The position numbers were made by a program, and so were the translations under genes. From contig JBQTHS010000095.1 in assembly GCA_052389635.1 (NCBI GenBank), positions 9 through 64,008 of the forward strand: DNA of 64,000 nt. Reading direction: 5' to 3'. Shown here piece after piece: positions 43,463 to 59,908 of the stretch (position 1 is its first letter; each line of letters opens with the position of its first letter). The notes under the pieces were generated by a model. That model ran no database searches and was not told the DNA's origin. It saw only the letters and a program-made list of their open reading frames with translations. Source of the stretch: Bacteroidota bacterium. GTDB lineage: Bacteria; Bacteroidota; Bacteroidia; Chitinophagales; Chitinophagaceae.

Positions 43463-43676
43463 ACCCCTGTCCCCGCCGGCTGGCGGGGAACTTAGAGACG
43501 GAAATTTTGTTATACCAGTTAAAAAGCTCTTATGATAGTAAGTTGAATGTTTATGTTACCAACTTTAGTTCCCTGATTGGGCTTGAGTTGCGTCGCACAT
43601 TTCAACTGTCGTAATTCTAATCATCAATAAACAATCTCCGTGTAAACGGAGTACAAAGCCCCTTTAGGGGTTGGGG
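43463..43676. repeat. Composite repeat region at the nuoA/B junction
   Basis: ACCCCTGT CCCCGCCGGCTGGCGGGG AACTT (43463-43493), GTTGCGTCGCAC (43587-43598), palindrome CTCCGTGTAAACGGAG (43636-43651), and the reverse arm AAAGCCCCTTTAGGGGTTGGGG (43655-43676). Confidence 0.75.
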
Positions 43677-43680
43677 TTCC

Positions 43681-44265
43681 ATGGCTCGTCCTGTATCATA
43701 TAATCTTATCAAAAAGCCGCTGGAAAGCGACATCAGCATAGCTGAGATGCCCGAAGGTCAGCAGGGTGAAGGTTTTTTCGCCACCAAACTCAACACGGTG
43801 ATTGGGCTGGCAAGAAAAAACTCCATCTGGCCTTTGCCTTTTGCTACGTCCTGCTGTGGAATTGAGTTCATGGCTACGATGGGTTCACATTATGATTTGG
43901 CAAGATTTGGTTCTGAAAGAGTAGGCTTTTCACCCCGTCAGTGTGATTTACTGATGGTGATGGGAACTATTGCAAAAAAGATGGGTCCGGTGCTGAAGCA
44001 AGTATATCTGCAAATGGCTGAACCCCGTTGGGTGATTGCTGTAGGTGCCTGTGCCAGCAGTGGCGGTATTTTCGATACCTACAGTGTCTTGCAGGGCATT
44101 GACCAGGTAATACCGGTGGATGTGTATGTGCCGGGTTGCCCGCCAAGACCAGAAGCAATTATTGATGGTGTGATAAGAGTACAGGATTTGGTGGGTAAAG
44201 AAAGTTTGAGACGAAGAAATGGAGAAAAGTATAAGTTATTATTAGAAAGTTATGGCATCCAATAA
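43681..44265 (+). CDS. nuoB: NADH-quinone oxidoreductase subunit B
   Basis: Motifs ATSCCGIE, GACASSGG and VPGCPPRPE. Confidence 0.97.
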   Translation: MARPVSYNLIKKPLESDISIAEMPEGQQGEGFFATKLNTVIGLARKNSIWPLPFATSCCGIEFMATMGSHYDLARFGSERVGFSPRQCDLLMVMGTIAKKMGPVLKQVYLQMAEPRWVIAVGACASSGGIFDTYSVLQGIDQVIPVDVYVPGCPPRPEAIIDGVIRVQDLVGKESLRRRNGEKYKLLLESYGIQ

Positions 44266-44269
44266 AAGC

Positions 44270-44773
44270 ATGGCACTAACTAACGGGCATATCAAACAAA
44301 GACTGACTGATAAATTTCCCGGGCAGGTGATTGGCTTCGAAGAACCATATGGGATGCTCACCTTCGAAGCACCAAAAGAACTGAACCTGAAGGTGCTTAA
44401 TTTTTTATACGATGATGAGGAATTGAAGTTTCGTTTCCTGACCACCCTGGGCGGTGTGCATTATCCCCAAAATAAAGGAAGAGAGCTTGCCATTGTTTAT
44501 CATTTGCATAATATGACAGACAATGTCCGTATCCGGTTCAAAGTGTTTACAGATATAAATCAACCTGATATTTATACTGCCACAGGATTATTTTCTGCGG
44601 CTAACTGGATGGAGAGAGAGACCTATGATTTCTTCGGGATAAACTTTGTTGGTCACCCGAAGCTTAAAAGAATTTTGAATGTGGATGAAATGGATTATTT
44701 CCCGATGCGGAAAGAGTTTCCATTGGAAGACCAGACAAGGATTGACAAGGATGATGAGATGTTTGGGAGGTAA
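44270..44773 (+). CDS. nuoC: NADH-quinone oxidoreductase subunit C
   Basis: Motifs ANWMERETYDFFGINF and GHPKLKRIL. The start was moved from 44252 to ATG 44270. Confidence 0.95.
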   Translation: MALTNGHIKQRLTDKFPGQVIGFEEPYGMLTFEAPKELNLKVLNFLYDDEELKFRFLTTLGGVHYPQNKGRELAIVYHLHNMTDNVRIRFKVFTDINQPDIYTATGLFSAANWMERETYDFFGINFVGHPKLKRILNVDEMDYFPMRKEFPLEDQTRIDKDDEMFGR

Positions 44774-45241
44774 AGCCTCCCCAAACCCCTCCGCATGAAG
44801 GGGCTTTAGAACCTGATTAGAGAGAGCTGGATTCTTGGTTTTGAAAATGAAATGGTACAAAGATGATCAGGTTCTTGGTTGGATAATGCTATGTATTTTG
44901 ATAGTAGGGATTGTTTTGATAATGTCAGCATGTAATGGTGTCTTTCAGTTGTATCGAGGATATAGTCAACCAGCGTAACGAACGAAAAAGTAGCTAACGA
45001 TTAACTGGTATAGCCCCGTAGGGGCGGCATATTGGTAGCCGCGGATTTCAATCCGGGGTATAAATGAAGAAGAAGTGTTTTGAGTCCCGTAGGGGCGATA
45101 TATTTTGCTGAATGGAATTACAGAACGATGAAGGGAGCAAATCTTTCACTGGAAGATTTGAAGACAACAGACGATATTAGTAGTACAAGCGATGACAAAT
45201 TAAAAAAATTAAAATTCTCCGCCGGTTGGCGGAGATAGGGT
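44774..45241. repeat. Composite repeat region at the nuoC/D junction
   Basis: Left arm AGCCTCCCCAAACCCCTCC...AAGGGGCTTT (44774-44807), a tripartite palindromic element (45013-45096), a 30-bp motif (45170-45199) and the hairpin TCTCCGCCGGTTGGCGGAGA (45216-45235). Confidence 0.75.
44847..44978 (+). CDS. Candidate 43-aa single-TM or lipoprotein-like small protein
   Basis: MKWYKDDQVLGWIMLCILIVGIVLIMSACNGVFQLYRGYSQPA; below the ORF-track length cutoff. Confidence 0.35.
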   Translation: MKWYKDDQVLGWIMLCILIVGIVLIMSACNGVFQLYRGYSQPA

Positions 45242-45242
45242 C

Positions 45243-46466
45243 ATGAGTGAACAACATATCAAATTACCGGAAGGCTCGATTGAGAAAACCACCACTACGC
45301 TGAACCTGGGGCCCACCCACCCGGCTACACACGGGGTGATGCAGAACATCCTGGAACTGGATGGCGAACGAATTGTTTCTACTGAACAAACGATTGGTTA
45401 TATCCACCGTGCATTTGAAAAAATTGCTGAACGAAGACCACTCTATCAAATTACAACATTGACTGACAGGTTAAACTATTGTTCATCTCCCATCAACAAT
45501 ATGGGCTGGCATATTACCTGTGAAAAATTGCTGGGAGTGAAAACACCCAAGCGGGTTGATTATCTCCGGGTCATCATCATGGAGCTGGCAAGAATTTCTG
45601 ACCATTTGATTTGCAATTCGATCGTAGGCGTGGATGCCGGCGCTTACACCGGGTTTTTGTATGTGATGCAATACCGGGAACTGATTTATGAAATTTATGA
45701 AGAGGTTTGTGGGGCAAGATTGACCACCAACATTGGCCGTATCGGTGGATTTGAAAGAAACTTTAATGATATCGCTTTTCAGAAATTAGAAAAATTCCTG
45801 TCTGAATATCCCAAAGTGCTGAAAGAATTTGAAGGGCTGTTTCAGCGGAACAGGATATTCATGGAAAGAACAATAGGAACAGGGGCGATCAGTGCCGACA
45901 GGGCGTTGAATTATGGTTTCACCGGTCCTAATCTCCGTGCTGCCGGCGTGGATTATGATGTGAGGGTACATACGCCTTACAGCAGTTATGAGGATTTTCA
46001 ATTCAATATACCCGTGGGGACCACCGGCGATAATTATGACCGCTGGCTGGTGCGGGAAAAAGAAATGTGGGAGAGTCTGAGCATTATTGAACAGGCCTAT
46101 CAGAAAGTCCAGGAGTTTAAAGGTGCAGAAGCTGAAGTCTTTCATGCAGATGCGCCTGAATATTATTTGCCGGAAAAAGAAGAGGTATATACCAAAATGG
46201 AAGCATTGATTTACCATTTTAAAATTGTGATGGGCGAAATTGAAATTCCGAAAGGAGAAGTGTACCAGGCGGTGGAAGCCGGTAATGGCGAACTGGGCTT
46301 TTATTTAATCAGTGATGGCGGAAGAACACCCTATCGTTTGCATTTCCGCAGGCCCTGCTTTATTTATTACCAGGCTTTTGAAGAATTGACGAAAGGAGGA
46401 ATGCTGAGTGATGCGATCATAACGATGAGCAGCCTGAATCTGATTGCCGGCGAAATGGATTCTTAA
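45243..46466 (+). CDS. nuoD: NADH-quinone oxidoreductase subunit D
   Basis: Motifs [27 protein letters not shown] and GELGFY. Confidence 0.97.
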
Positions 46467-46485
46467 TTAATAAGGGAGAGTTTAA

Positions 46486-46983
46486 ATGAAATTTTCTGAC
46501 GAAAAACTAAAAGAAGTACAGCGCATCATCGGTTTCTACCCGGAGGGGAAACAAAAAAGTGCAGTGATCCCGGTGCTGCATCTGGCCCAGCATGAATTTG
46601 GCGGCTGGCTTAATGCTGAGACGATGGACTATGTGGCTTCTTTGCTGCAACTGGAACCGATTGAAGTGTATGAAGTGGCGACTTTTTATAGCATGTACAA
46701 CCTGAAACCGGTTGGTAAATATATGTTTGAAGTTTGCCAGACCGGGCCTTGTATGCTGAACGGAAGCGATGATATTATTAAATATATCTATGACAAACTG
46801 GGCATCCGACCCGGTGAGACGACAGTAGATGGAATGTTTACGTTGAAAACTGTAGAATGCCTGGGCGCCTGTGGCTATGCACCGATGATGCAATTGGGAA
46901 AAAATTACCGGGAACACCTGACCAGGGAAAAAGTGGATGTGATAATTGAAGAATGCAGGAGAAGCCAGGCACAAAAAAATTAA
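46486..46983 (+). CDS. nuoE: NADH-quinone oxidoreductase subunit E
   Basis: Motifs VATFYSMY, CQTGPC and ECLGACGYAP. Confidence 0.96.
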   Translation: MKFSDEKLKEVQRIIGFYPEGKQKSAVIPVLHLAQHEFGGWLNAETMDYVASLLQLEPIEVYEVATFYSMYNLKPVGKYMFEVCQTGPCMLNGSDDIIKYIYDKLGIRPGETTVDGMFTLKTVECLGACGYAPMMQLGKNYREHLTREKVDVIIEECRRSQAQKN

Positions 46984-46984
46984 G

Positions 46985-47419
46985 ATGAAGAGCTACCTGG
47001 TAATATTTTTCCTGGCATTGTATTCGGCAGCCGGGGCACAGTCAAAAAAAACGGCAAAGGCGCTGGCGCATTCAAAACTGCTGGTGAAAACCATCTTTGA
47101 AACAAAGGACAGCGCTACCCTCGACGATCTTTTTGCACCGGGGATGAAACACCAGGCAGCCAACGGCAGAACAGAATCAAGGGAGGAGGCCATCCGGAAT
47201 ATTGCCGGTAACAGATCGGTGTTTGTGCAGGCGGATATGCTGAAAGGATACGGGGTGACGGAAGAAAAGGATTCATCGGTGGTGAAATACTTCTATAGGG
47301 GAAGGGAGAACAAGCCTGACGGGACATCATCGGTATACACGGCTAACCTGGTGATGGTATGGGTAAAGGAGAAAAAGGATGTGAAGTTGCTCAGGCTGGA
47401 AACAATAAAAATCGAGTAA
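46985..47419 (+). CDS. Secreted NTF2-like (DUF4440-like) protein
   Basis: Signal peptide from ATG 46985; its pattern resembles the adjacent NTF2-like gene. Confidence 0.7.
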   Translation: MKSYLVIFFLALYSAAGAQSKKTAKALAHSKLLVKTIFETKDSATLDDLFAPGMKHQAANGRTESREEAIRNIAGNRSVFVQADMLKGYGVTEEKDSSVVKYFYRGRENKPDGTSSVYTANLVMVWVKEKKDVKLLRLETIKIE

Positions 47420-47420
47420 T

Positions 47421-47837
47421 ATGCGGCTGTTCTTTGTGATGGGGTTGCTGGTTTCACAGTTGTCAGTTTTCGCCCAGGGCAATGAGGAAAAGCTGACAAC
47501 GACGCTGAAAGAATTTCACCAGGCATTGGTAAAAAAGAATACGGTTTCTATCAACCAGCAAACGGATAAGGCCCTGAGCTATGGACACAGCAACGGCTGG
47601 GTGGAAACAAAAGCTAATTTGATAAAAAACCTGGAAACAGGTTATCTGGATTATAAAAGTTATAAGGAAGACAGCCTTCAGGTGATGATTAGCGGAAGTG
47701 TTGCACATGCAAGGTTTATAGCGGATATAAATGTGACGATGAATGGAAAGGAAGGTAACTATCATTTGAAAGTGCTGGAAGTGTGGGTCAGGAAAGGGAA
47801 ACGGTGGTTGTTGTTTGCGAGACAGGCGGTGAGATAG
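47421..47837 (+). CDS. Secreted NTF2-like (DUF4440) protein
   Basis: Signal peptide; motifs LSYGHSNG and VLEVWV...WLLFARQA. Confidence 0.8.
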   Translation: MRLFFVMGLLVSQLSVFAQGNEEKLTTTLKEFHQALVKKNTVSINQQTDKALSYGHSNGWVETKANLIKNLETGYLDYKSYKEDSLQVMISGSVAHARFIADINVTMNGKEGNYHLKVLEVWVRKGKRWLLFARQAVR

Positions 47838-47843
47838 AAAAAA

Positions 47844-47919
47844 AGAATAAGGAATAAGAAATAAGGAATGAGGAAGTAGTTTTAAAGGCCAGCAGCTAAT
47901 GGCTATCAGCTGATAGCTA
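47844..47919. repeat. Two heptamer arrays before nuoF
   Basis: AGAATAA GGAATAA GAAATAA GGAATGA GGAAGTA (47844-47878), then GCCAGCA GCTAATG GCTATCA GCTGATA GCTA, which contains the perfect palindrome GCTATCAGCTGATAGC (47902-47917). Confidence 0.75.
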
Positions 47920-47927
47920 TATATAAT

Positions 47928-49283
47928 ATGGGAAGAAAATTATTATTAGACAAGGCTCACATTGAAAACATCAGGCGCTATGATGTGTACCGCCGCGAAG
48001 GCGGCTATCGAAGTGTGGAGAAAGCATTGAAAACTATGAGCCCGGACGCCGTTACTGAAGAAGTAAAGAAAAGCGGGCTTCGTGGCCGTGGGGGCGCTGG
48101 TTTTCCCACCGGGATGAAATGGGGTTTTCTGGCCAAACCGGAAGGAGTGCCCCGTTACCTCGTGGTGAATGCAGATGAATCGGAGCCGGGGACATTCAAG
48201 GACAGGTACCTGATGGAGTTCATTCCGCACCTGCTGATCGAAGGAATGATCACTTCTTCTTATGCTATTGGCTCCAACCGCTCTTACATTTATATACGGG
48301 GGGAATTTGCCTGGATCGTTGATATTCTCGAGCAGGCCATCACGGAAGCAAAGAACAATGGCTGGCTGGGAAAGAATATCCTGGGCAGCGGTTTTGATTG
48401 TGAAATATATGTGCAGCGTGGCGCCGGCGCTTATATCTGCGGGGAGGAAACAGCATTGCTGGAATCGTTGGAAGGGAAAAGAGGTAATCCGAGGATCAAA
48501 CCGCCATTCCCGGCGGTAAAAGGTTTATGGGACTGCCCGACAGTGGTGAATAATGTGGAGACCATTGCTGCCGTGGTTCCCATCGTCAATGAAGGGGGAA
48601 ATGAATATGCTAAAATCGGAATTGGAAAATCAACAGGAACGAAATTGATTTCTGCCTGTGGTAATATTAAAAAGCAGGGGGTGTACGAAATTGACATGAC
48701 CATAAGCGTGGAAGAATTTATTTACAGCGATGAATACTGTGGCGGTATTGCCAACGGAAGAAAACTGAAAGCCTGTATTCCCGGCGGTTCATCAGTGCCT
48801 ATCCTGCCCGCTAACCTTTTGTTGACAACAGCAAAAGGGGAGAAGAGGATGATGACCTACGAAAGTCTGGCTGATGGGGGTTTTGCAACCGGTTCGATGA
48901 TGGGTTCGGGTGGATTTATTGTGCTGGATGATACGCAGTGTGTGGTAAAACATACATACACTCTTGCAAGATTTTATCGTCATGAAAGTTGCGGACAATG
49001 TTCACCCTGCCGGGAAGGCACCGGGTGGATGGAAAAAATTCTCTGGAACATTGAAACCGGAAAAGGAAAGATGAGTGATATTGATTTACTCTGGGATATA
49101 CAGCGGAAAATTGAAGGGAATACGATTTGCCCGTTAGGAGATGCGGCTGCATGGCCTGTTGCCGCTGCTATCAGGCATTTCAGGGATGAGTTTGAATGGC
49201 ATGTGACGAACCCGGATGATGCACAAAGAAGGAATTATGGATTGGCCGGATACGCAGAACCTTTAAAAGCAGCTGTTTCTTAA
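47928..49283 (+). CDS. nuoF: NADH-quinone oxidoreductase subunit F
   Basis: Motifs SGLRGRGGAGF, NADESEPG, GAGAYICGEETAL and ESCGQCSPCREG. Confidence 0.98.
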   Translation: MGRKLLLDKAHIENIRRYDVYRREGGYRSVEKALKTMSPDAVTEEVKKSGLRGRGGAGFPTGMKWGFLAKPEGVPRYLVVNADESEPGTFKDRYLMEFIPHLLIEGMITSSYAIGSNRSYIYIRGEFAWIVDILEQAITEAKNNGWLGKNILGSGFDCEIYVQRGAGAYICGEETALLESLEGKRGNPRIKPPFPAVKGLWDCPTVVNNVETIAAVVPIVNEGGNEYAKIGIGKSTGTKLISACGNIKKQGVYEIDMTISVEEFIYSDEYCGGIANGRKLKACIPGGSSVPILPANLLLTTAKGEKRMMTYESLADGGFATGSMMGSGGFIVLDDTQCVVKHTYTLARFYRHESCGQCSPCREGTGWMEKILWNIETGKGKMSDIDLLWDIQRKIEGNTICPLGDAAAWPVAAAIRHFRDEFEWHVTNPDDAQRRNYGLAGYAEPLKAAVS

Positions 49284-49744
49284 AGTAAAAAATCAAAAGC
49301 CAAAATTCAAAACCGTGGAAGAAATATTTGAGACTTTTGAAGTAAATGAAGGGGAGAAACCTTATAATATTAGGCATAGGTGCTACTATTTTTCGAAGGA
49401 AGTAGTGCTGTATGTGAAAGCTTGTAAATATGATAAAGTTTATCATTCAGTATTTGACCAACTGATAAGAAGCGCAACATCCATTGGAGCTAACCTGGTT
49501 GAAGGCAGAGCGGGCAGTTCGAGAAAAGACTGGAAAAATTTTTATGTTATAGCCCTGAAGTCTGCCAATGAAACAAAATATTGGCTGTGCTTGATTAGAG
49601 ACACAATGGAAACAGACAAATTAAAAATAAAGGAGCTGATAACTGAAGCGGAAGAGATTTCAAATATTATTGCTACAATTATAGTGAATGCCCGGAAGGG
49701 GGGAGGTTTTTGACTTTTTAATTTTGACTTTTGACTTTTGAATT
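49282..49744. mobile_element. Putative cassette: a four-helix-bundle gene between inverted heptamer arrays
   Basis: Left arm AAAGTAA AAAATCA AAAGCCA AAATTCA AAA (49282-49312); right arm TTTTGAC TTTTTAA TTTTGAC TTTTGAC TTTTGAA TT (49708-49744). Mobility is inferred, not shown. Confidence 0.6.
49315..49713 (+). CDS. Four-helix-bundle protein (23S rRNA IVP / TIGR02436-like)
   Basis: Motifs QLIRSATSIGANLVEG and ALKSANETKYWL; GTG start. Confidence 0.92.
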   Translation: MEEIFETFEVNEGEKPYNIRHRCYYFSKEVVLYVKACKYDKVYHSVFDQLIRSATSIGANLVEGRAGSSRKDWKNFYVIALKSANETKYWLCLIRDTMETDKLKIKELITEAEEISNIIATIIVNARKGGGF

Positions 49745-49750
49745 ACTATA

Positions 49751-50854
49751 ATGGCTGAAGACAAAAAAACATTTAAAGTAACCATTGACAACATCACCCT
49801 CGATGTTGAACCGGGTACTACTATCTTAAATGCCGCCCGTAAAATCGGCGGCGATGTAACACCGCCTGCCATGTGCTATTACAGCAAACTGCAGGGCAGC
49901 GGTGGTAAATGCCGTACCTGCCTGGTGGAAGTAGCCGCAGGCTCTGCGGCTGATCCGAGGCCGATGCCAAAACTGATGGCCAGTTGCCGTACCACGGTAA
50001 TGGATGGTATGGTGGTAAAAAATATGACGAGTGAAAAGGTAACAGATGCAAGAAACGGGGTAGTAGAGTTCTTATTGATCAATCATCCGCTGGATTGCCC
50101 GGTATGCGACCAGGCCGGTGAATGCGACCTGCAGGACCTGGGATATAACCATGGGAAAGAAGGCACCCGCTACGAATTCAAAAGAAGAACATTTGAGAAA
50201 GAGGATATAGGGCCCTGCATACAGTTGCATATGACAAGGTGCATACTTTGCTATCGTTGCACCTATGTAGCCGACCAGTTAACTGATAACCGGGTGCATG
50301 GAGTGCTGGACAGAGGTGACCATTCAGAGATCTCTACTTATATTTCCAAAGCAATTGATAGTGACTTCAGCGGAAATATGATTGATGTGTGCCCGGTTGG
50401 TGCATTAACGGATAAAACATTCCGGTTTAAAAACAGGGTGTGGTTTACCAAACCGGTGGATGCTCACCGTGATTGCGACAAATGCTGCGGTAAAGTAACC
50501 TTATGGCAGCGGGGCGATGATGTACTGAGGGTAACGGCCCGGAAAGATGAATGGGGCGAAGTGCAGAGCTTTGATGGCAAACCCGGCTGGATATGTAACA
50601 ATTGCCGGTTTCATAAAAAGAAAGTCAGTGATTGGGTGATAGAAGGACTGACAAATATTAACCGGCACTCAGTGATAGGGCAGGGAAAATATCCGGGGTT
50701 GGTGATACCCAAAGAAACAATAGCCGATGTGATGGGTGGCAGGGATCCGAAACTGCTGATGGATATCCATGACATCAGTGATGTGAACAGTGTGGAGATA
50801 GCTTCTCTGCCAGGGCCGGCAACAAGTGAAACGTTTGATAAGGGTAGAAAATGA
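49751..50854 (+). CDS. nuoG: NADH-quinone oxidoreductase subunit G (short form)
   Basis: Motifs CRTCLV, HPLDCPVCDQAGEC, CILCYRC and DVCPVGAL; 367 aa. Confidence 0.95.
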   Translation: MAEDKKTFKVTIDNITLDVEPGTTILNAARKIGGDVTPPAMCYYSKLQGSGGKCRTCLVEVAAGSAADPRPMPKLMASCRTTVMDGMVVKNMTSEKVTDARNGVVEFLLINHPLDCPVCDQAGECDLQDLGYNHGKEGTRYEFKRRTFEKEDIGPCIQLHMTRCILCYRCTYVADQLTDNRVHGVLDRGDHSEISTYISKAIDSDFSGNMIDVCPVGALTDKTFRFKNRVWFTKPVDAHRDCDKCCGKVTLWQRGDDVLRVTARKDEWGEVQSFDGKPGWICNNCRFHKKKVSDWVIEGLTNINRHSVIGQGKYPGLVIPKETIADVMGGRDPKLLMDIHDISDVNSVEIASLPGPATSETFDKGRK

Positions 50855-51750
50855 GATTTACTGCAACTATAATTTGTTGCCTTGCCTTATACTTAAGTTC
50901 TTTGAGCCAGCAAGGTTGCTTAGCAATAAGAAACGAATCCGGAGAGCCGATTTCTTATGCTACTGTTTTCATTAAGGGAACAGGAAAAGTTTTCATTGCA
51001 GACAGTTCAGGGAAAATTTGTTTGAAAAGCTATGAAGGCATTGATTCCGGTGATACGGTTTTAATAAGTGCGGTGGGATATCTGGATACTGTAACTACAG
51101 TTGACAAAACCAAAATCTTTAAGCTTTTAAAATCCTTTAAGGTTTTGCCAGAAGTGGTTGTAGTAAACGGGGAAGGGAAAAAAGAAGTATGGGGAACAAA
51201 AAGAAACCCGGTTCCTATTGTTGGATTTGGGGGCGGTACGCTTAGTTTCAGGGAAATATTAAATTCAACTGCAAGAATAATTTATCCTGAAGGAGAGTTT
51301 AAAAAGGCGGAGATTCAATCCGTAGCGTTTTATGATCCTACGGGAAAAGGAATAAATGTTCCGGTCAGGATAAGAGTTTTTTCAATAGGCAAAGATTCTC
51401 TCCCGGCAGGAGATTATTTGACAGACAATTTGATAATAGATACGAAAGGAAAAGGGTGGATGGAAGCAGACCTCAAAGAAAAGGGGCTTATTTTTCCAAA
51501 AGAGGGATTAATATTTGGAATTGAACTTTTCGTTGATAGCAAAGAGAATTATTATCATGAAAAGCGAAAAACAGGAACTGGCAAAAAGGTAGTGACTATC
51601 TACGGATTTAGCCTTGCATTTGAAAAAAGTGAGAAAGTACTCACTATGACTAAATTCCCGGGATGGGGAAATAAATGGTATATCACCCCTTCAAGGAAAG
51701 ATGGATTAGGCAATTTAGTTTGCCGGGTGAAAGTAAAAGTGTGGAGATAG
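50851..51750 (+). CDS. Secreted protein with an N-terminal carboxypeptidase-regulatory-like domain
   Basis: Signal peptide; motifs GEPISYATVFI, ISAVGY and LPEVVV; visibly AT-rich; ATGA overlap with nuoG. Confidence 0.8.
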   Translation: MRFTATIICCLALYLSSLSQQGCLAIRNESGEPISYATVFIKGTGKVFIADSSGKICLKSYEGIDSGDTVLISAVGYLDTVTTVDKTKIFKLLKSFKVLPEVVVVNGEGKKEVWGTKRNPVPIVGFGGGTLSFREILNSTARIIYPEGEFKKAEIQSVAFYDPTGKGINVPVRIRVFSIGKDSLPAGDYLTDNLIIDTKGKGWMEADLKEKGLIFPKEGLIFGIELFVDSKENYYHEKRKTGTGKKVVTIYGFSLAFEKSEKVLTMTKFPGWGNKWYITPSRKDGLGNLVCRVKVKVWR

Positions 51751-51795
51751 ATTTGCTGCCGGGGGCGGTCACTTCAGCATCTTTTAAGAAGTAAG

Positions 51796-51986: not shown

Positions 51987-52013
51987 TTAAAGTCCTGAGG
52001 ACAAATTGTTGTT

Positions 52014-53069
52014 ATGTATTTATTGTCAATAGACTGGTGGTTGATCCTGGAAAAAGCATTGCTGATTGGCGGCATTGTTGGTCTGTCGTTCTTTATTGCC
52101 ATGTACACCACCTATGCCGAAAGAAAAGTGGCGGCATGGCTGCAGGACAGGAGAGGGCCAAACAGGGCCGGGCCCTTTGGTATATTGCAGCCACTAGCTG
52201 ATGGCGGCAAACTTTTTTTCAAGGAAGAAATCATTCCTTTAGCATCGAATAAATTTTTGTTTATCCTTGGCCCGGCATTGGCCATGATAACAGCCTTGCT
52301 CACAAGCACTGTTATTCCATGGGCTGCCCCATTTGTAACGAAAGGCGGTAATGTAATTCCGATGCAGGTGGCTGATGTTGATATGGGGATTTTATTGGTG
52401 TTCAGCATTGTGAGTGTGGGGGTGTATGGTATAATGATTGGCGGCTGGGCATCGAATAATAAATTTTCGCTGATGGCGGCTATCCGGGGCGCTTCGCAAA
52501 TGGTATCGTATGAGTTGCCGATGGGATTAGCACTGATAGCGGTGCTGTTTATTACCGGCTCTTTAAAAATGAGTGAAATTGTGGCCAACCAGGTGCAAAA
52601 CGGCTGGCATATTATTTACCAGCCGCTGGGCTTTATCATCTTTTTTGTATGTGCTTTGGCGGAATGTAACCGTACACCCTTTGACTTACCCGAGGCGGAA
52701 AATGAACTGAACTTTGGTTATCACCAGGAGTATTCGTCCATGAAGCTGGGCTTTTACCTGTTTGCTGAATACATCAATATGTTTGTAAGCAGTGCCGTAA
52801 TGGTAACCTTATATTTTGGCGGGTATGATATTCCGTTTGTGAATGAAGCCACCTGGGGATTAAATTCCTTCTGGATGTCAGTTATAAGTTTCAGTGTCCT
52901 GATGGCGAAAATATCTTTCTTCCTCTTTGTGTTCTTATGGATACGGTGGACGATCCCCCGTTTCCGTTATGACCAATTGATGAATTTGGGTTGGAAGAAA
53001 ATGATACCATTGGCGTTAGTGAATATGATCATTACGGCGGCGGTGATATTGTGGCTGAGGCCCCACTAA
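52014..53069 (+). CDS. nuoH: NADH-quinone oxidoreductase subunit H
   Basis: Motifs ERKVAAWLQDRRGPN, RTPFDLPEAE and PRFRYDQLM. Confidence 0.97.
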   Translation: MYLLSIDWWLILEKALLIGGIVGLSFFIAMYTTYAERKVAAWLQDRRGPNRAGPFGILQPLADGGKLFFKEEIIPLASNKFLFILGPALAMITALLTSTVIPWAAPFVTKGGNVIPMQVADVDMGILLVFSIVSVGVYGIMIGGWASNNKFSLMAAIRGASQMVSYELPMGLALIAVLFITGSLKMSEIVANQVQNGWHIIYQPLGFIIFFVCALAECNRTPFDLPEAENELNFGYHQEYSSMKLGFYLFAEYINMFVSSAVMVTLYFGGYDIPFVNEATWGLNSFWMSVISFSVLMAKISFFLFVFLWIRWTIPRFRYDQLMNLGWKKMIPLALVNMIITAAVILWLRPH

Positions 53070-53368
53070 ATCTCCCCGCGGGGAGACTTAACATTGCACA
53101 AGGCCAACTTTTTTAGAAAGGCTGATGGAAACAAAAAGTTCTTGAGTTTGGAAAAAGCGCAGCCCCGGAGGGGCTGAATGCCGGTAGCCCCGGATGAAAT
53201 CCGGGGAAAGGAGAACGAAAAGCACGAAGAACCCCATAGGGGTTCAACAGAAAATAAGAATAGAGAAGATTTTGATATTGGAACGGAGGTGTCGCAAATG
53301 CTGAGCAGCCATATGCAGTGCAAGAGTGCGACGCAAGGGACGATGATAGCAGCAATGCAGATGACAAA
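53061..53368. repeat. Composite repeat region at the nuoH/I junction
   Basis: CCCCACTAAATCTCCCCGCGGGGAGACTT (53061-53089, supplies the nuoH stop), a tripartite element (53161-53245), GAGTGCGACGCAA (53324-53336) and a 30-bp motif (53339-53368). Confidence 0.75.
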
Positions 53369-53390
53369 ATATATATTTGCAAACTTTAAA

Positions 53391-53933
53391 ATGAGGATAC
53401 GCTTAACAAACAGGTCAGTAGAAGTGAGCCGAAAACCGATGACATTCCTGGAGAGTATTTATCTCTGGAATATCCTGAAGGGCATGGGTATTACCATCAG
53501 CCATTTGTTCAAAAGAAAGGCAACGATCAATTATCCTGAGCAGAAAAGATCATTTTCAAAAGTGTTTCGTGGTTTGCATGTGCTGAACCGTGATGCGGGA
53601 GGAAGGGAAAATTGTACTGCTTGTGGATTATGTGCGGTGGCTTGCCCGGCAGAAGCCATCACAATGGAAGGGGCGGAGAGATTACCCGGGGAAGAACACC
53701 TGTACCGGGAAGAAAAATATGCAGTGAAGTATGAGATCAACATGCTGCGTTGTATTTTCTGTGGCTTGTGTGAAGAGGCCTGCCCGAAAGATGCAATCTA
53801 TTTGTCGCAAACCTTTGCCCCGGCTAACTATGGACGAAAAGGATTTATTTATAAAAAGGAAGATCTGCTGATACCTCACCCGGTTAAAGAGCCTGAAGCG
53901 TATAAGAAGGCATTGGGTGAAAAGGTTAAGTAG
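53391..53933 (+). CDS. nuoI: NADH-quinone oxidoreductase subunit I
   Basis: Two CxxCxxCxxxCP motifs. The start was moved from 53178 to ATG 53391. Confidence 0.95.
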   Translation: MRIRLTNRSVEVSRKPMTFLESIYLWNILKGMGITISHLFKRKATINYPEQKRSFSKVFRGLHVLNRDAGGRENCTACGLCAVACPAEAITMEGAERLPGEEHLYREEKYAVKYEINMLRCIFCGLCEEACPKDAIYLSQTFAPANYGRKGFIYKKEDLLIPHPVKEPEAYKKALGEKVK

Positions 53934-53944
53934 TTGAAGTGTCT

Positions 53945-53990
53945 GGGATTTGTGATTTGATATTTGGAATTTGATACGGGATTTTGATTT
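53945..53990. repeat. Heptamer array before nuoJ (unpaired arm)
   Basis: GGGATTT GTGATTT GATATTT GGAATTT GATACGG GATTTTG ATTT. Confidence 0.75.
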
Positions 53991-53994
53991 GCTT

Positions 53995-54495
53995 ATGGGA
54001 GTAACACAAATTTTATTTTGGTTTCTTTCGGTGGTGGCCATATTCAGCGCTCTGATGGTGATTACCAGTAAGAACCCCGTCTATAGTGTGCTGTGGCTGA
54101 TCGCCACTTTCTTTGCTATTTCCGGTCATTATATATTACTGAATGCCCAGTTCCTGGCCATTGTAAACATTATAGTTTACGCCGGTGCTATCATGGTATT
54201 GTTCCTGTTCGTGATAATGCTGATGAACCTGAATAAAGAAACCGAACCGCAAAAAAACCGCTGGCTGAAAATAGCAGGCGCCGTAGCAGGTGGTTGTTTG
54301 CTGCTGGTGCTGGTGGCTGCATTAAAGGATACCGACATCAAACAACAGCAGGCATTGGTGAATGAAGGCGGGATCGGATTGATTAAAAATTTAGGGAAAG
54401 AATTGTTTACCACTTATGTGGTACCATTTGAGATAAGCAGTGTATTGTTTCTGAGTGCCATGGTAGGGGCGGTGGTGATAGGAAAGAAGGAATGA
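53995..54495 (+). CDS. nuoJ: NADH-quinone oxidoreductase subunit J
   Basis: Motifs KNPVYS, IVYAGAIMVLFLFVIML and PFEISS. The start was moved to ATG 53995. Confidence 0.95.
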   Translation: MGVTQILFWFLSVVAIFSALMVITSKNPVYSVLWLIATFFAISGHYILLNAQFLAIVNIIVYAGAIMVLFLFVIMLMNLNKETEPQKNRWLKIAGAVAGGCLLLVLVAALKDTDIKQQQALVNEGGIGLIKNLGKELFTTYVVPFEISSVLFLSAMVGAVVIGKKE

Positions 54496-54560
54496 AAGGT
54501 TAAAATGAAGAATTAAGAGTTTAGAATTAAAAACCCGATTCTGAACGCATAACTTGAATT
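54491..54560. repeat. Heptamer array with a degenerate inverted partner at nuoJ/K
   Basis: AATGAAA GGTTAAA ATGAAGA ATTAAGA GTTTAGA ATTAAAA (54491-54532), then ATTCTGAACGCATAACTTGAATT. Confidence 0.65.
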
Positions 54561-54561
54561 T

Positions 54562-54897
54562 ATGCCGGTTAATTATTACATATTTCTGTCTATCGCCTTA
54601 TTTACCATTGGCATTGTGGGTGTACTCACACGCCGCAACGCCATTATCATCTTTATGTGCATTGAACTGATGTTGAATGCGGTGAATTTACTGCTGGTGG
54701 CCTTTTCAAAAATGCACCACCTGAAAGCAATAGCTGCTGATGCGGCCACTGCCGCCGGAACAGATGGCCAGTTGTTTGTATTCTTTATAATGGTAGTGGC
54801 AGCGGCAGAAGTGAGTGTGGGCCTGGCCATAATTGTAATGATGTACCGGAATATTCATTCAGTGGATGTGAATTTTTTGAACAGGTTGAAACATTAG
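54562..54897 (+). CDS. nuoK: NADH-quinone oxidoreductase subunit K
   Basis: Motifs [15 protein letters not shown] and [11 protein letters not shown]. Confidence 0.96.
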
Positions 54898-54907
54898 AAG
54901 ACAATTT

Positions 54908-56800
54908 ATGCAGAATGTATTACAAATAGTGTATCTGATTCCTCTCTTGCCATTGATTGGGTTCCTTATCAATGGTTTGGGAAGAAAGCACTTGTCGAAA
55001 TCGGCGATTGGTATAATTGGTTCAGGGGTCATCCTTGCCTCGTTTGCACTCAGCATCTGGGTGTTTATGCAGGTAAGGGGCGGCAACACCCATGAAGCTC
55101 ACTATTTCGATTTCATAAATGCCGGTTCACTGAAAATTCCTTTTGCTTTTAAGATTGACCAGCTCTCTTCCTTGTTCCTGCTGATAATAACAGGAGTTGG
55201 TTTCCTGATCCATGTTTACTCCACTTCCTACATGCACGGGGAGAAGACAGAGCATTTCGGAAGGTATTTCTCCTTCCTGAACCTGTTTGTTTTCTCCATG
55301 CTCCTGCTGGTGATGGGCGCCAATTTCGTCATCATGTTCATCGGCTGGGAAGGAGTAGGGCTTTGTTCTTACCTGCTGATCGGCTATTGGTTCAAAAACC
55401 AGGAGTACAATAAAGCGGCGAACAAGGCCTTTATCATGAACCGTATCGGCGACCTGGCTTTCCTGATCGCTATTTTTTGGCTGATCCAAAAACTGGGCAC
55501 TGTTTCATACAGCGAGGTCTTCAATACAGCCAACCTGGCCAAACTGAAAACTGCCGATATAACTGCCATTACACTGTTACTTTTCGTTGGAGCTACTGGT
55601 AAAAGCGCCCAGATACCTTTATACACCTGGTTGCCCGATGCGATGGCAGGCCCTACTCCCGTCTCAGCACTGATCCATGCCGCTACGATGGTAACAGCCG
55701 GTATTTATATGATTGCCCGGAGTAATGTGCTGTACTCCCTGGCGCCCCTTACGACGGATATTGTGGCATACATTGGCCTGGCAACAGCATTACTGGCGGC
55801 TACCATTGCCCTCAGGCAAAATGATATTAAAAAAGTGCTGGCATATTCTACGGTAAGCCAGTTAGGGTTCATGTTCCTGGCATTAGGTTGCGGGGCTTAT
55901 ACAGCAGCTGTGTTTCATGTAATGACACATGCCTTCTTCAAAGCCCTGTTGTTCCTCGGCAGCGGCAGTGTGATACATGCCATGGGCGGTGAGCAGGATA
56001 TCCGGAACATGGGAGGATTGAGCAGGAAGCTTAAAATCACTTTTATCACCTTCCTGATTGGATGTATTGCTATTGCCGGTATCCCGCCATTCAGTGGTTT
56101 CTTTTCCAAAGACGCCATCTTATTGAGCGCATTCATAAAAAGCCCGGGGCTCTATGGAATTGCTTTGTTCACAGCCTTGCTTACTGCATTCTATATATTC
56201 CGTTTGCTGTTCATCACTTTCACTGGGAAATTCAGGGGAACTCCTGAGCAGGAGCATCACCTGCATGAAAGCCCGGCAGCCATAACGATTACTTTGATCA
56301 TCCTTGCTGTTCTTTCCATAATTGGTGGTTTTGTGGGAATACCGGAAGTGTTCATGCAGGGCGGCGATAAGATCGGCGAATTTTTATCTCCTGTCATTGC
56401 CGCACATGACGGACATACGGTTTCACACTCTACCGAATATATGCTGATGAGTTTGTCAACAGGGTTGGTTATAATCATGATCATTTTTGCCGGGTTCAGA
56501 TTCAGAAACTACCAGCGCAGCGAGGCCACAGGGTTGGGAAAAGTGCTGGAGAATAAATGGTATGTGGATGAATTGTACGACAAAGTGTTTGTGAACCCGC
56601 TGCATAAATTCGGCGGATTCCTGAAGAATATAATAGAGAAAGGCGTGATCGACGGGTTGGTCAATGGTACGGGACGGTTGGTGAACTATGGTAGTCGCCA
56701 GTTACGGCTGCTGCAAAGCGGCCAGGTGGGCAGCTATGTATTGCTGATGGTGCTGAGCATGGTAATAATATTTGCGGTTCAATTCTTTTTGAGAAAATAG
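54908..56800 (+). CDS. nuoL: NADH-quinone oxidoreductase subunit L
   Basis: Motifs GKSAQIPLYTWLPDAMAGPTPVSALIHAATM and HAFFKALLF. Confidence 0.97.
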   Translation: MQNVLQIVYLIPLLPLIGFLINGLGRKHLSKSAIGIIGSGVILASFALSIWVFMQVRGGNTHEAHYFDFINAGSLKIPFAFKIDQLSSLFLLIITGVGFLIHVYSTSYMHGEKTEHFGRYFSFLNLFVFSMLLLVMGANFVIMFIGWEGVGLCSYLLIGYWFKNQEYNKAANKAFIMNRIGDLAFLIAIFWLIQKLGTVSYSEVFNTANLAKLKTADITAITLLLFVGATGKSAQIPLYTWLPDAMAGPTPVSALIHAATMVTAGIYMIARSNVLYSLAPLTTDIVAYIGLATALLAATIALRQNDIKKVLAYSTVSQLGFMFLALGCGAYTAAVFHVMTHAFFKALLFLGSGSVIHAMGGEQDIRNMGGLSRKLKITFITFLIGCIAIAGIPPFSGFFSKDAILLSAFIKSPGLYGIALFTALLTAFYIFRLLFITFTGKFRGTPEQEHHLHESPAAITITLIILAVLSIIGGFVGIPEVFMQGGDKIGEFLSPVIAAHDGHTVSHSTEYMLMSLSTGLVIIMIIFAGFRFRNYQRSEATGLGKVLENKWYVDELYDKVFVNPLHKFGGFLKNIIEKGVIDGLVNGTGRLVNYGSRQLRLLQSGQVGSYVLLMVLSMVIIFAVQFFLRK

Positions 56801-56924
56801 GCCCCAAATTCCCAGCAAGGGACTTCGGAGCTTCATTATAATTTGAAATTTGATTAAAGTATTTGAAATAACTAAATAAAATGACTCTTCGGAAACCTCG
56901 CTTGCAGGGAGGTTGGGAGGGGCT
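56801..56924. repeat. Inverted pair of C/G-rich hairpin repeats at nuoL/M
   Basis: GCCCCAAATTCCCAGCAAGGGACTT directly after the nuoL stop, and CCTCGCTTGCAGGGAGGTTGGGAGGGGCT just before nuoM. Confidence 0.7.
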
Positions 56925-56930
56925 AATAGT

Positions 56931-58415
56931 ATGGTTCCCGTTTTATTGATAATAATACCATTAGTTGCCGGCCTGGCGGCTTTCTTTCTGAAAAATGAGA
57001 AGACAGTCCGGTTATGGGCGCTGTTTTCCGCTGTTGCCACATTGGCTGTTTCAGTGCTGGGGTTAACCTTATTAAATGAAGGGAAATACCTGGAACATAG
57101 CGCTGAGTGGCTGGCTGCGCTCAACAGCAGTTTTTCAGTGAAGCTGGACGGAATGGGCCAGCTGCTTTGCCTGCTGAATGCGGTGGCTTATCCATTGGTC
57201 ATTCTTTCAACCTGGGGAAATTCCTATAAGAAAGCCCATAATTTTTTCGCCCTGATGATGCTGGCGCAGGCGGGAATGATGGGGGTCTTTGTTGCCAGTG
57301 ATGCGCTGCTGTTTTATTTCTTCTGGGAACTGGCGCTGATACCCATGTATTTTCTCTGTTCGCAGTGGGGCGGTGAGAAAAGGATACCCGTTACTTTCAA
57401 ATTCTTTATCTACACATTTGTGGGTTCCCTGCTGATGTTAATTGGTATTATCTTGCTGCAGTCAAAAACATCCGGCCAGTCTTTTTCCTTAGAGGCTTTT
57501 TACAATCTTAGCCTGTCCGGAAAACAGCAACAGTGGGTGTTCTGGCTGTTCTTTGTCGCATTCGCAATCAAGATGCCGGTGTTTCCTTTTCATACCTGGC
57601 AACCGGATACGTATGAACAGGCGCCACCAGCTACTACCATGATACTAAGCGGGGTGATGGTAAAGATGGGGCTGTTTGGTATGCTCCGCTGGCTGTTTCC
57701 TGTACTGCCCATTGCATCATTTCAATGGGCGGATTTTATTACCCCGCTTGCATTGATCGGTGCTTTATACGCAGCGTTGATCGCTATCCGGCAGGATGAT
57801 CTGAAAAGATTGGTGGCTTACTCGTCCATTGCACACATAGGCCTGATGTGTGCGGCTGCATTTGCACAGAACACAGCCGGCTTCCAGGGTTTGATGATAC
57901 AGATGTTCAATCATGGAATTAACATCATTGGTCTCTGGATAGTGGTGGACATAACAGAAAGACAATTCAGGACAAGAAAGATTTCTGAACTCGGCGGTAT
58001 TGCGGGCAAGGCCCCTGCATTGGCCATGATGCTGGTCATCATTGCGCTGGCTAATATTGCGTTGCCATTGACTAATGCTTTTCCGGGAGAATTTCTGATG
58101 TTCAGCGGCATTTTCAGTTCCGCAACAGTATATAATGTCTGGTTCACAGTATTGGCAGGGCTGGGCATTATCCTCGGCGCTGTTTATACCTTGAATATGA
58201 TCAGGAAAGTTTTTTACGGGGATACCAACGGGCTGACACAATCTGCAAAAGATATTTCCCGGAACAGGAAACTGGCGCTCGGGATAATTGTCCTCGTCAT
58301 ATTTGTACTGGGTGTTTACCCACAACTGATGCTGGATGAAACAGCACAGGCGGCAGGCGCCCTTAATGAAAAATTTGATTTTGTCCGGCAAAGCCTGCTG
58401 GAGCAAAGGAAGTAG
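56931..58415 (+). CDS. nuoM: NADH-quinone oxidoreductase subunit M
   Basis: Motifs FAIKMPVFPFHTW, KRLVAYSSIAH and FPGEF. The start was moved to ATG 56931. Confidence 0.96.
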   Translation: MVPVLLIIIPLVAGLAAFFLKNEKTVRLWALFSAVATLAVSVLGLTLLNEGKYLEHSAEWLAALNSSFSVKLDGMGQLLCLLNAVAYPLVILSTWGNSYKKAHNFFALMMLAQAGMMGVFVASDALLFYFFWELALIPMYFLCSQWGGEKRIPVTFKFFIYTFVGSLLMLIGIILLQSKTSGQSFSLEAFYNLSLSGKQQQWVFWLFFVAFAIKMPVFPFHTWQPDTYEQAPPATTMILSGVMVKMGLFGMLRWLFPVLPIASFQWADFITPLALIGALYAALIAIRQDDLKRLVAYSSIAHIGLMCAAAFAQNTAGFQGLMIQMFNHGINIIGLWIVVDITERQFRTRKISELGGIAGKAPALAMMLVIIALANIALPLTNAFPGEFLMFSGIFSSATVYNVWFTVLAGLGIILGAVYTLNMIRKVFYGDTNGLTQSAKDISRNRKLALGIIVLVIFVLGVYPQLMLDETAQAAGALNEKFDFVRQSLLEQRK

Positions 58416-58417
58416 TT

Positions 58418-59791
58418 ATGAACGTATTAATAATATCAGCTGTATTGGGTGTATTAATGATGTTCAGCAGCTTCCTGCTGAAGAGCAGGGCAGCTGTGCG
58501 CAACCTCGCCATTGCCGGGATGGCGCTGTTGCTGCTGTCAAATATCCTGGAAATCTGCGGCACCAGGCTCTTTGAGGTGAATACTTATGGCATGATTTAT
58601 TTTGACCGGTTTGCACTCCTGTTCAATACGGTCGCAGTATTTTCCACATTCGTTTACCTGATGCTTTCAGCAAGGGATATGGAAAAAGTGGGCATCAACT
58701 ATGCCGAGTATTTTGCCCTCCTCTTTTTTATCATCTGCGGCATCACCCTTGTTTCTTCTTTCAAATCACTGTTGATACTTTTCCTCGGTATCGAAATCAT
58801 TTCCATCCCGCTTTATATCCTTACAGGCAGTGATAAACGGAACCTGAAAAGCAACGAGGCATCGCTGAAGTATTTCCTGCTCGGAGCTTTTTCAACAGGC
58901 CTCATGCTGATGGGCATCGCCATGGTCTATGGCGTTATGGGATCTTTTTCCAGTAATATCCGGTTAGGTGAAGGCCAGGGCCCCAACGCATTGCTAATTG
59001 GCGGTATCCTGCTGCTGCTTTTCTCCATGTCGTTCAAGGCATCGCTGGCGCCTTTCCATTTCTGGACACCTGATGTATATGACGGGGCCCCCACCGTATT
59101 CACCTCTTTCATGGCCACCATTGTAAAAGCAGCGGTTTTCATTGCATTTATCCGCCTGTTTGGCGATGGCTTCGGAATCCTGCATCCCCAATGGCAGCTT
59201 ATTGTGGCCCTCATCACAGTTGCCACACTCTTTATTGGTAATATAACCGCCGTTTTCCAGCAAAGTGTGAAAAGAATGCTGGCCTACTCCAGTATTGCAC
59301 AGGCTGGTTTTATGATGCTGGCTTTGTTTGCCATGAATACAGAAGCGAAGGAAGGCCTGCTGCTTTACACAGTCGCATACAGCTTCGCCACCATCGGAAT
59401 TTTTGCTGTACTGATAAAAATGAGCGACTATACCTTCAGTGGGTTTAACGGGTTTGCAAAACATCAGCCTTTGCTGGCAGCCACCACCACCATTTTCCTT
59501 TTATCCTTGGCTGGTATTCCGCTTACTGCAGGCTTCCTTTCCAAATTTTATATGCTGAAAGCAGCACTTGCTGCAGATAAAACACTTTGGTTGGTGATTT
59601 TTGCTGTACTGATGGCTGCTATCTCCGTTTACTATTACTTCCGGGTGATACAGGCCATGTATTTTAAAGAAGGGGACGATCCTAAAATACAGACCAGTCC
59701 TGCTTTCAAATGGACACTGGTATTTCTTGCTGCGGCGATAATACTGCTGGGGATATTCCCAAACCTTTTGCTGAACTGGATGTATTTCTGA
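58418..59791 (+). CDS. nuoN: NADH-quinone oxidoreductase subunit N
   Basis: Motifs EASLKYF, PFHFWTPDVYDGAP, KRMLAYSSIAQ and LAGIPLTAGF. Confidence 0.96.
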   Translation: MNVLIISAVLGVLMMFSSFLLKSRAAVRNLAIAGMALLLLSNILEICGTRLFEVNTYGMIYFDRFALLFNTVAVFSTFVYLMLSARDMEKVGINYAEYFALLFFIICGITLVSSFKSLLILFLGIEIISIPLYILTGSDKRNLKSNEASLKYFLLGAFSTGLMLMGIAMVYGVMGSFSSNIRLGEGQGPNALLIGGILLLLFSMSFKASLAPFHFWTPDVYDGAPTVFTSFMATIVKAAVFIAFIRLFGDGFGILHPQWQLIVALITVATLFIGNITAVFQQSVKRMLAYSSIAQAGFMMLALFAMNTEAKEGLLLYTVAYSFATIGIFAVLIKMSDYTFSGFNGFAKHQPLLAATTTIFLLSLAGIPLTAGFLSKFYMLKAALAADKTLWLVIFAVLMAAISVYYYFRVIQAMYFKEGDDPKIQTSPAFKWTLVFLAAAIILLGIFPNLLLNWMYF

Positions 59792-59792
59792 T

Positions 59793-59908
59793 GGTCTGAC
59801 GGTCCCCCTCTGACCGGTTATTGATATGGTCTGGCCGTCTCGGTCTGACCAATTGCCAGTTATTATCTTTGTAAACAAGTCTGACGGTCCCCGTCTGACT
59901 TGTTTACA
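59793..59908. repeat. Three copies of a GTCTGAC-N-GTCTGAC hairpin repeat, with a -7 box TATCTTTG at 59864-59871
   Basis: GGTCTGACGGTCCCCCTCTGACC, TGGTCTGGCCGTCTCGGTCTGACCA and TGTAAACAAGTCTGACGGTCCCCGTCTGACTTGTTTACA. Confidence 0.8.

Follow-up and report, generated by a model that had tools for sequence, protein, structure and literature searches.

The stretch of DNA considered here, a 64,000-nucleotide (nt) window of contig JBQTHS010000095.1 from a Bacteroidota bacterium, contains an operon of 14 complex I genes, nuoA to nuoN, and raises the question of how so many gaps between these genes came to hold repeats or additional open reading frames (ORFs) with the genes themselves left intact. 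A first-pass annotation had answered with one insertion process for which nuo is a special landing array. That annotation was mostly right in what it observed; its reading of a nuo-specific array loaded by a single mechanism is not upheld. The contents of the nuo junctions are probably a mixture of different ages and did not arise by a single targeted process; they are best classed as selfish elements, REP-like and intervening-sequence (IVS)-like, together with old accessory genes, all in permissive operon gaps. Coordinates are positions in the window unless another contig or locus is named, and loci of relatives carry L numbers.

Junction content of the nuo operon

Each of the 14 Nuo subunits is a full-length match to its own Pfam family, so that the earlier statement that all frames are intact is borne out, and the junction contents are insertions that left the nuo genes whole. 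From A/B to G/H the junctions measure 218, -14, 469, 19, 944, 467 and 1159 nt, and from H/I to M/N they measure 321, 37, 66, 10, 112 and 2 nt, with 119 nt between nuoN and the next gene; B/C, D/E, K/L and M/N are as tight as previously described. Structured repeats or extra ORFs occupy A/B, C/D, E/F, F/G, G/H, H/I and L/M as well as the nuoN exit (Table 1), involving at least five repeat families and four extra ORFs, all co-oriented with nuo (two at E/F, one at F/G and one at G/H). The inserts directly adjoin the upstream stop codon at A/B, C/D, F/G, H/I, L/M and N/next. The repeat families, the co-oriented ORFs and the frequent start of inserts at the stop codon had been recognised in the first-pass annotation, whose count of nine loaded junctions in 13 has nevertheless to be reduced: I/J and J/K match other loci only over 14-18 nt of AT-rich sequence, fold with z-scores of -1.4 and -1.6 (not significant), and are ordinary short spacers, unconvincing as inserts. 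This leaves 7 of 13 junctions as robust cases, together with the nuoN exit.

That the remaining spacers are ordinary intergenic DNA, regulatory spacers of normal length or the outcome of chance, is very improbable and largely refuted, even though the median nuo spacer, at 37 nt, does not exceed the co-directional median of the genome (50 nt), I/J and J/K look ordinary and H/I has a conserved promoter-like box. Ten of the 11 nuo spacers of at least 25 nt share sequence with other intergenic DNA, compared with a background of 32% among other co-directional spacers, and 6 of the 11 are significantly structured (RNAfold z of -2.6 to -7.6), compared with 32% of all co-directional spacers of at least 25 nt, as scored in a reduced genome-wide analysis. 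Moreover, the shared sequences include defined families of 25-30 copies, and orthologous junctions are empty in relatives.

The extent of the H/I junction depends on the true start of nuoI. Orthologue alignment places the conserved start at the methionine at 53391, and the longest ORF begins at 53178; because nuoI really begins at 53391, H/I is 321 nt long, not 108. The 71-codon extension from 53178 to 53390 reads through four REP-like hairpins, and automatic annotation would probably over-extend nuoI. The box upstream of the conserved start, TATATTTG, matches TAnnTTTG, which we take to be the Bacteroidetes -7 promoter consensus, and is conserved throughout the genus apart from the two streamlined genomes. 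Its presence points to a promoter inside the operon, before nuoI, in which case nuo would comprise at least two transcription units.

REP-like units and other small elements

One class of insert consists of short GC hairpins. The REP1 unit, CCC-NNN-GGG followed by 7-8 nt and GGTAG and often by a second hairpin, is present in C/D and H/I, and its profile matches these two junctions, both flanks of one Y1 gene and at least five other loci (E < 0.01). This Y1 (HUH) gene, at C2:8467-8961, lies between REP1 units at 8418-8450 (+) and 9003-9035 (-), and the units end in GGTAG at both of its flanks as well as at C/D and H/I; GTAG also immediately precedes the hairpin CCCCGGATGAAATCCGGGG. The genome has three small, RAYT-like Y1 genes, each single-copy, mutually divergent and flanked by GC hairpins, which for the two remaining genes are of types other than REP1. 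Neither a Y1 transposase nor a tyrosine integrase (PF00589) is present on the window's contig, three of each lying elsewhere in the genome, with other transposase families unscreened. This is in line with the earlier statement that the window lacks integrases and transposases; candidate transposases are nonetheless encoded outside it. Under strict criteria, the density of GC hairpins is 0.81 per kb for intergenic and 0.18 per kb for coding DNA, and the nuo copies fold with z of -2.1 to -4.1.

The closest known parallel is provided by the REP and BIME elements and the RAYT (REP-associated tyrosine transposase) genes of Proteobacteria (PMC2817692, PMC3116915, PMC3733652). Common to both are short extragenic palindromes that are GC-rich and tagged with GTAG (GTAG or CGTC in REP/RAYT systems), mosaic clusters between operon genes and just past stop codons, and a single-copy Y1 gene between inverted copies of one repeat unit, as seen for the C2 gene and REP1. 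The present case differs in its Bacteroidota host, in the co-occurrence of three divergent Y1 genes with several hairpin types, and in the Y1 proteins, which fit the IS200 model better than the NCBI RAYT model, all three passing the IS200-type model NF033573. In the relatives L010 (8825-9303) and L014, tandem arrays of three or four REP1-like units (GCCCCAGAGGGGCACAATGTCGGTAGG... every ~66 nt) fill H/I; they resemble enterobacterial BIME mosaic arrays and produce spurious repetitive ORFs.

A second hairpin family, CCTCCCCAAaCCCCTCC-loop-GGAGGGGCTT, yields 36 matches to a loose pattern, of which ~25-30 are clear members, many of them 2-5 nt from a stop codon. It has two copies in nuo, one around the nuoC stop codon, an element also found at C/D in L011, and one inverted and adjoining the nuoB start. 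A ~100-nt module, GCTGAATAGCGAACAGAAC...GTGCGACGCAA...GATGATAGTAGTA...ATAAAA, gives 26 matches at E < 0.01 and in most cases immediately precedes a gene of the same orientation; nuo has three copies (at H/I, at C/D and, partial and inverted, at A/B), another lies just upstream of trpB in the trp operon, and RNAalifold gives no convincing consensus structure for it (-2.5 kcal/mol).

An Rfam match to Acido-Lenti-1 at 45012-45058 (-), overlapping a REP1 unit, remained below threshold (31.5 bits versus 37) and was rejected as probably the mere likeness of two GC hairpins. Several cruder searches were likewise set aside. Loose hairpin counts (stem of at least 5) barely separated intergenic from coding DNA (2.1 versus 1.3 per kb), and a simple regular expression for REP1 found 14 sites where ~12 were expected, which is not above chance, and was replaced by the profile search. 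BLAST of the Y1-gene flanks against the genome returned almost no significant matches because the units are too short, stem ranking by raw frequency was dominated by A-rich stems, and strict period-7 array detection, with only two arrays in nuo and 53 in intergenic DNA genome-wide, proved too strict for short imperfect arrays.

An intervening-sequence-like cassette between nuoF and nuoG

A further class of insert includes a cassette that fills the whole F/G junction. Its ORF belongs to the PF05635/TIGR02436 four-helix-bundle family, and its two arms close a stem around the ORF in the fold. Such heptamer-class hairpins have arms made of inverted arrays of 6-8-nt units, and all 12 four-helix-bundle genes of the genome possess their own, mutually different inverted heptamer arms, 10 of the 12 being wedged, co-oriented, between co-directional genes. 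Empty heptamer hairpins occupy many junctions of the S10-spc ribosomal-protein operon, and the nuoN exit, one of whose hairpins (59869-59909) is a near-perfect 19-bp stem, has the look of a cassette without its gene. The 3' arm of the long L/M hairpin recurs in the genome's second nuo-like operon. An orthologous F/G cassette with the identical arm type is found in L008, L011, L028-30 and L033. The genome encodes three reverse transcriptases, and an RNA-mediated route for the heptamer-armed cassettes is conceivable.

ORF-bearing intervening sequences are known from the 23S rRNA of Coxiella burnetii and Leptospira (PMC4990558). They share with the F/G cassette a PF05635 ORF (S23p in the Coxiella literature), a total length of ~430-470 nt, terminal inverted repeats that form a long stem around the ORF, and an arm with tandem heptamers immediately before the start codon. 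The rRNA sequences lie in helix 25 or 45 and are excised by RNase III, whereas the cassette lies between nuoF and nuoG, where RNase III cutting would split an mRNA instead of the rRNA of the 23S case. Intergenic heptamer direct repeats have also been described in Beggiatoaceae, Cyanobacteria and some Bacteroidetes (PMC4679880) as short tandem 7-nt arrays, nearly all intergenic and often ending just before a start codon, as here; in the window's genome, however, each array has its own unit, and the arrays form inverted pairs that make hairpins, sometimes around a gene. A palindrome, CCGATAGCTATCGG, is nested in heptamer arrays at A/B and C/D of L007, at H/I of L014 and on the genome's own contig C176 (~7430), and may be a further tiny element inserting into such arrays; the palindrome in the spacer before nuoF, GCTATCAGCTGATAGC, is similar to it yet distinct.

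The architecture of the cassette bears on an alternative in which the hairpins now serve to punctuate the RNA: as RNase III sites or exonuclease barriers they would divide the long nuo transcript, tune cistron stability and be kept by selection. Sister species carry other elements, or none, at the same junction, spacers of ~0-60 nt suffice for this operon in streamlined relatives, and differential stability is not obviously useful for complex I subunits, which are made in equal amounts, so that such a role appears quite improbable in spite of the strong structure of six spacers, the resemblance of the cassette to RNase III-excised 23S rRNA intervening sequences (PMC4990558) and the conservation of the F/G arms across species.

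Accessory genes within the operon

A further component of the mixture consists of genes that are old residents. The second of the two tandem DUF4440 genes at E/F is kept there in 13 of 15 genus loci. The G/H junction holds a gene for a protein of 299 amino acids (aa) that is CarbopepD_reg-like at its N-terminus; it has no homologue in 40 reference relatives and 30 homologues, at 41-76% identity, in metagenomes, and its gene lies between nuoG and nuoH in every genomic context inspected. The protein thus represents a genuine family. The order nuoE-DUF4440-nuoF-IVP-nuoG-299aa-nuoH, with the same cassette arms, recurs in two lineages (L028-30 and L033), and nuoG-299aa-nuoH recurs in L031. Relative to the window, the Nuo proteins of the syntenic loci are 75-95% identical and the 299-aa protein only 41-69%, which argues for a long-standing association and a fast-evolving protein. 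The gene has a G+C content of 0.37-0.39 versus ~0.45-0.50 in its surroundings. One metagenome protein, P0031 (477 aa), is a fusion: it has a NuoH (NADHdh) domain and shows similarity to the 299-aa protein across 56% of its length. The 299-aa protein is a candidate complex I accessory factor.

The end of this gene retains a footprint of its arrival. The nuoG 3' tail is present there a second time in decayed form; this copy gives SVEIDLLPGAVTSASFKK followed by a stop, out of frame, and the stop codon of the 299-aa gene lies inside it; the homologues share a ...GGAGATAG ending, their stop codon likewise falling inside the relic. The original insertion therefore duplicated the nuoG tail, leaving NuoG intact. 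Two short hydrophobic ORFs lie between the 299-aa gene and nuoH, one of 29 aa (MNEKAKNILSALIAVIIVAFIVFALCIGY, 51796-51885) and one of ~36 aa (ending ...AGWLAPILVKYIRKGKK, ~51884-51994); they may encode small membrane peptides or may have arisen by chance.

In Paracoccus denitrificans and Rhodobacter capsulatus, the nqo/nuo clusters contain interspersed unidentified reading frames that are co-oriented, non-disruptive and lineage-specific. As far as we are aware, these belong to gene families other than those of the window's nuo cargo, and we know of no report of hairpin repeats in those clusters.

The operon in relatives of the genus

The nuo locus was compared among 15 genomes of the same genus and five of other families. 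Spacer lengths differ greatly, M/N being the only junction that is not expanded in any of the species, and different elements occupy the same junction in different species. F/G is empty (18-23 nt) in L004, L009, L012, L017 and L018, holds a small GC hairpin (44 nt) in L016 and the four-helix-bundle cassette in the window, L008 and L011, carries a GxxExxY (TIGR04256) nuclease-like gene with CGCAAAGACGC-type inverted arms in L005 and L014 (the ORF is not intact in L015), and contains the same type of arms alone in L010 and a 300-aa ORF in L013. L008 and L011, the only well-resolved sister pair that is not streamlined, differ at 5 of 13 junctions. The first-pass annotation had expected junction contents to vary across the family, which holds for the small repeats, different between species of the genus, and only in part for the ORF cargo at E/F, F/G and G/H, which occupies the same junctions in several other species.

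The opposite extreme is represented by L017 and L018, 1.6-Mb genomes with the tightest nuo operons among the compared loci, in which junctions of ~0-60 nt throughout sum to only ~200-270 nt of spacer. In L012 the junctions are also ~0-60 nt throughout, apart from E/F, which holds a DUF4440 gene, and no Y1 genes are present. Y1 transposases and four-helix-bundle genes are absent from all three relatives of 1.6-1.7 Mb, of which L017 and L018 are the two whose nuo loci were compared.

Other cargo within nuo of the relatives is toxin-antitoxin-like, at G/H of L005 (6509-7143), D/E of L005 and L007, and E/F of L007 (5209-5734). It comprises an MNT/HEPN-like pair in which the MNT gene is broken (a remnant), a 156-aa nucleotidyltransferase-like ORF with a 72-aa partner, and a DUF2442/DUF4160-like pair, all identified by eye, with no match in the one Pfam or NCBIfam scan tried. 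Two apparent inserts were rejected, since the H/I gap of L013 (9129-10180) and the M/N gap of L010 (14392-15760) are in fact nuoH and nuoN, respectively, each split into two frames by frameshifts or assembly errors.

Comparison with other operons of the genome

Another key question is whether nuo is exceptional within its own genome. Junctions were scored by two measures independent of repeat family, as structured when the RNAfold z was below -2 and as shared when at least 15 nt recurred in other intergenic DNA (Table 2). Shared repeats are ~2-3 times more abundant in nuo than at co-directional junctions on average (p ~0.001-0.007). Core housekeeping operons as a group exceed the genome average, and this excess is not unique to nuo. 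The ribosomal-protein, ACIII-cox and trp operons are colonised as densely as nuo or more so, which contradicts its designation as a special landing array. In the trp operon (own contig C129, 11529-13617), two extra ORFs of 246 and 353 aa lie between trpF and trpB.

Table 2. Junctions scored per operon or cluster
Set	Junctions	Structured	Shared	Either
All co-directional junctions	1998	20%	20%	30%
nuo	18	6	10	11 (p = 0.007)
ACIII-cox	12	5	8	10
trp	8	4	6	6
Ribosomal-protein operon (scored for structure only)	22	11		
Second nuo-like operon	13	3	4	5
Polysaccharide cluster	27	1	1	2
PUL-like cluster	20	2	3	4
Miscellaneous cluster	18	2	2	2

The same comparison is where the strongest form of the landing-array proposal has to be weighed, namely one junction-targeted mechanism, coupled to transcription or single-stranded DNA, that preferentially loads highly expressed polycistrons with nuo as the prime example. 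Y1 transposases of the IS200/IS605 type act on single-stranded DNA, as such a mechanism would have it, and core operons (nuo, ribosomal-protein, ACIII-cox and trp) are loaded at 50-83% of junctions, compared with 7-20% in accessory clusters and 30% genome-wide. We nonetheless consider it unlikely, since the elements belong to at least four unrelated classes, the ORF cargo is syntenic and of ancient origin, and the second nuo-like operon is not enriched (5 of 13). The core versus accessory contrast is real, but residence time can explain it as easily as expression, given that accessory clusters may be recent imports. An integron is no closer a model, as the first-pass annotation had already concluded: integrons have IntI, attI and attC-bounded cassettes, whereas the nuo inserts alternate with essential genes and differ in their ends, and the contig lacks PF00589.

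A milder claim about the small elements is doubtful as well, although less so: that they build up mainly in operons that are core, long-resident or highly transcribed and avoid accessory clusters, either because insertion is coupled to transcription or exposed single-stranded DNA, or because the hairpins and the IVS-like cassette are retained as RNA punctuation. If this claim were true, operon junctions in this lineage would constitute a distinct genomic niche with its own community of mobile elements, and cargo would spread between species through the conserved genes on either side, which would serve as homology arms.

Several points weigh against the mixture that we favour. Some real core-operon preference remains that it does not explain. 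The genome-wide scoring rests on a crude ORF-based gene map, and the ACIII-cox and trp sets were chosen after a scan, which makes their p-values optimistic; all p-values are indicative only. REP/RAYT systems typically have >100 copies per genome, compared with ~10-30 per family here, in a 190-contig assembly in which some repeats have possibly been collapsed or lost. Against the RAYT model NF047646, two Y1 proteins reach 38 and 27.5 bits, below the cut-off of 80, and the third gives no match. Neither movement nor cleavage of the elements has been observed. In addition, the genus tree is star-like, so that for the cargo at F/G and G/H a loss looks the same as a gain or a recombination event.

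A proposed history of the junctions

The mixture reading may be set out as a sequence of events. The DUF4440 genes, the four-helix-bundle cassette and the 299-aa gene would have entered the operon before several species of the genus split, the last of these together with the duplication of the nuoG tail, and would since have been inherited, lost or swapped between species, presumably by recombination through the conserved flanking nuo genes. REP-like units were probably moved as single-stranded DNA by Y1 transposases encoded elsewhere in the genome, and the heptamer-armed cassettes would move, or be precisely lost, by some route. The small elements may insert anywhere and persist only where nothing breaks, with purifying selection removing insertions that damage a gene or its start region. 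A 14-gene operon would then offer 13 permissive slots. If the junctions originally measured ~0-25 nt, as in the tightest relatives, surviving inserts would for that reason start at the stop codon, and no stop-codon targeting would be needed.

Table 1. Features of the nuo operon and its junctions in the window
Feature	Position	Strand	Evidence or detail
nuoA-nuoN, 14 intact complex I genes	43067..59791	+	Pfam, orthologue alignment, sequence
A/B junction, 218 nt	43463..43680	+	fold z = -3.4
A/B: GC hairpin	43470-43489		directly after stop
A/B: partial inverted copy of ~100-nt module	43586-43630	-	
A/B: further hairpin	43636-43651		
A/B: inverted copy of CCTCCCCAA..GGGGCTT family	43655-43680		adjoining nuoB start
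Hairpin of CCTCCCCAAACCCCTCC-loop-GGGGCTT family	44765..44810	+	encloses nuoC stop codon; loose pattern search
C/D REP-like cluster	45011..45242	+	nhmmer, hairpin search
C/D: REP1 unit and second hairpin	45011-45058		CCCC-GTA-GGGG, 8 nt, GGTAG
C/D: second REP1-like unit	45083-45104		
C/D: copy of ~100-nt module	45101-45211		
C/D: hairpin TCTCCGCCGGTTGGCGGAGA	45216-45235		7 nt before nuoD
E/F: two tandem DUF4440 genes	46946-47419, 47421-47837	+	Pfam, synteny
Spacer before nuoF	47838..47927	+	
Before nuoF: lone GAATAAG-type heptamer array	47845-47869		
Before nuoF: palindrome	47899-47920		
F/G: IVS-like cassette filling whole junction	49284..49750	+	inverted-repeat score, fold, TIGR02436
F/G: left heptamer arm	49288-49312		
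F/G: four-helix-bundle ORF	49315-49713		
F/G: right arm	49715-49739		
G/H: 299-aa CarbopepD_reg-like gene	50851..51750	+	start overlaps nuoG stop by 4 nt
G/H: decayed second copy of nuoG 3' tail	51735..51795	+	direct repeat D1, 57 nt, 70% identity
H/I junction, 321 nt	53070..53390	+	hairpin searches, profile searches
H/I: hairpin	53071-53086		one nt past stop
H/I: REP1 unit and GTAG-tagged hairpin	53160-53206		
H/I: hairpin	53229-53245		
H/I: copy of ~100-nt module	53289-53392		
H/I: -7 box	53372-53379		~12 nt upstream of nuoI start
I/J and J/K spacers, flanking nuoJ	53934..54561 (53934-53970, 54496-54561)	+	short, AT-rich
L/M junction, one long imperfect hairpin	56801..56912	+	arms ~56809-56831 and 56886-56911; z = -2.8
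nuoN exit, three GTCTGAC-type array hairpins	59792..59910	+	z = -5.5

Biological significance

Short gaps within conserved operons of this genus host several kinds of small selfish elements, and element load seems to go with the presence of candidate machinery, namely Y1 transposases and four-helix-bundle cassettes. What is most novel here is, first, that an IVS-like cassette sits in an mRNA and, second, that core operons seem to be preferred. The former indicates that a cassette of the IVS type can persist for long between two cistrons of one mRNA, and the contrast between core operons and accessory clusters offers a lead on how elements choose, or survive at, their sites. Moreover, extra genes within nuo can be stable, lineage-specific members of the operon.

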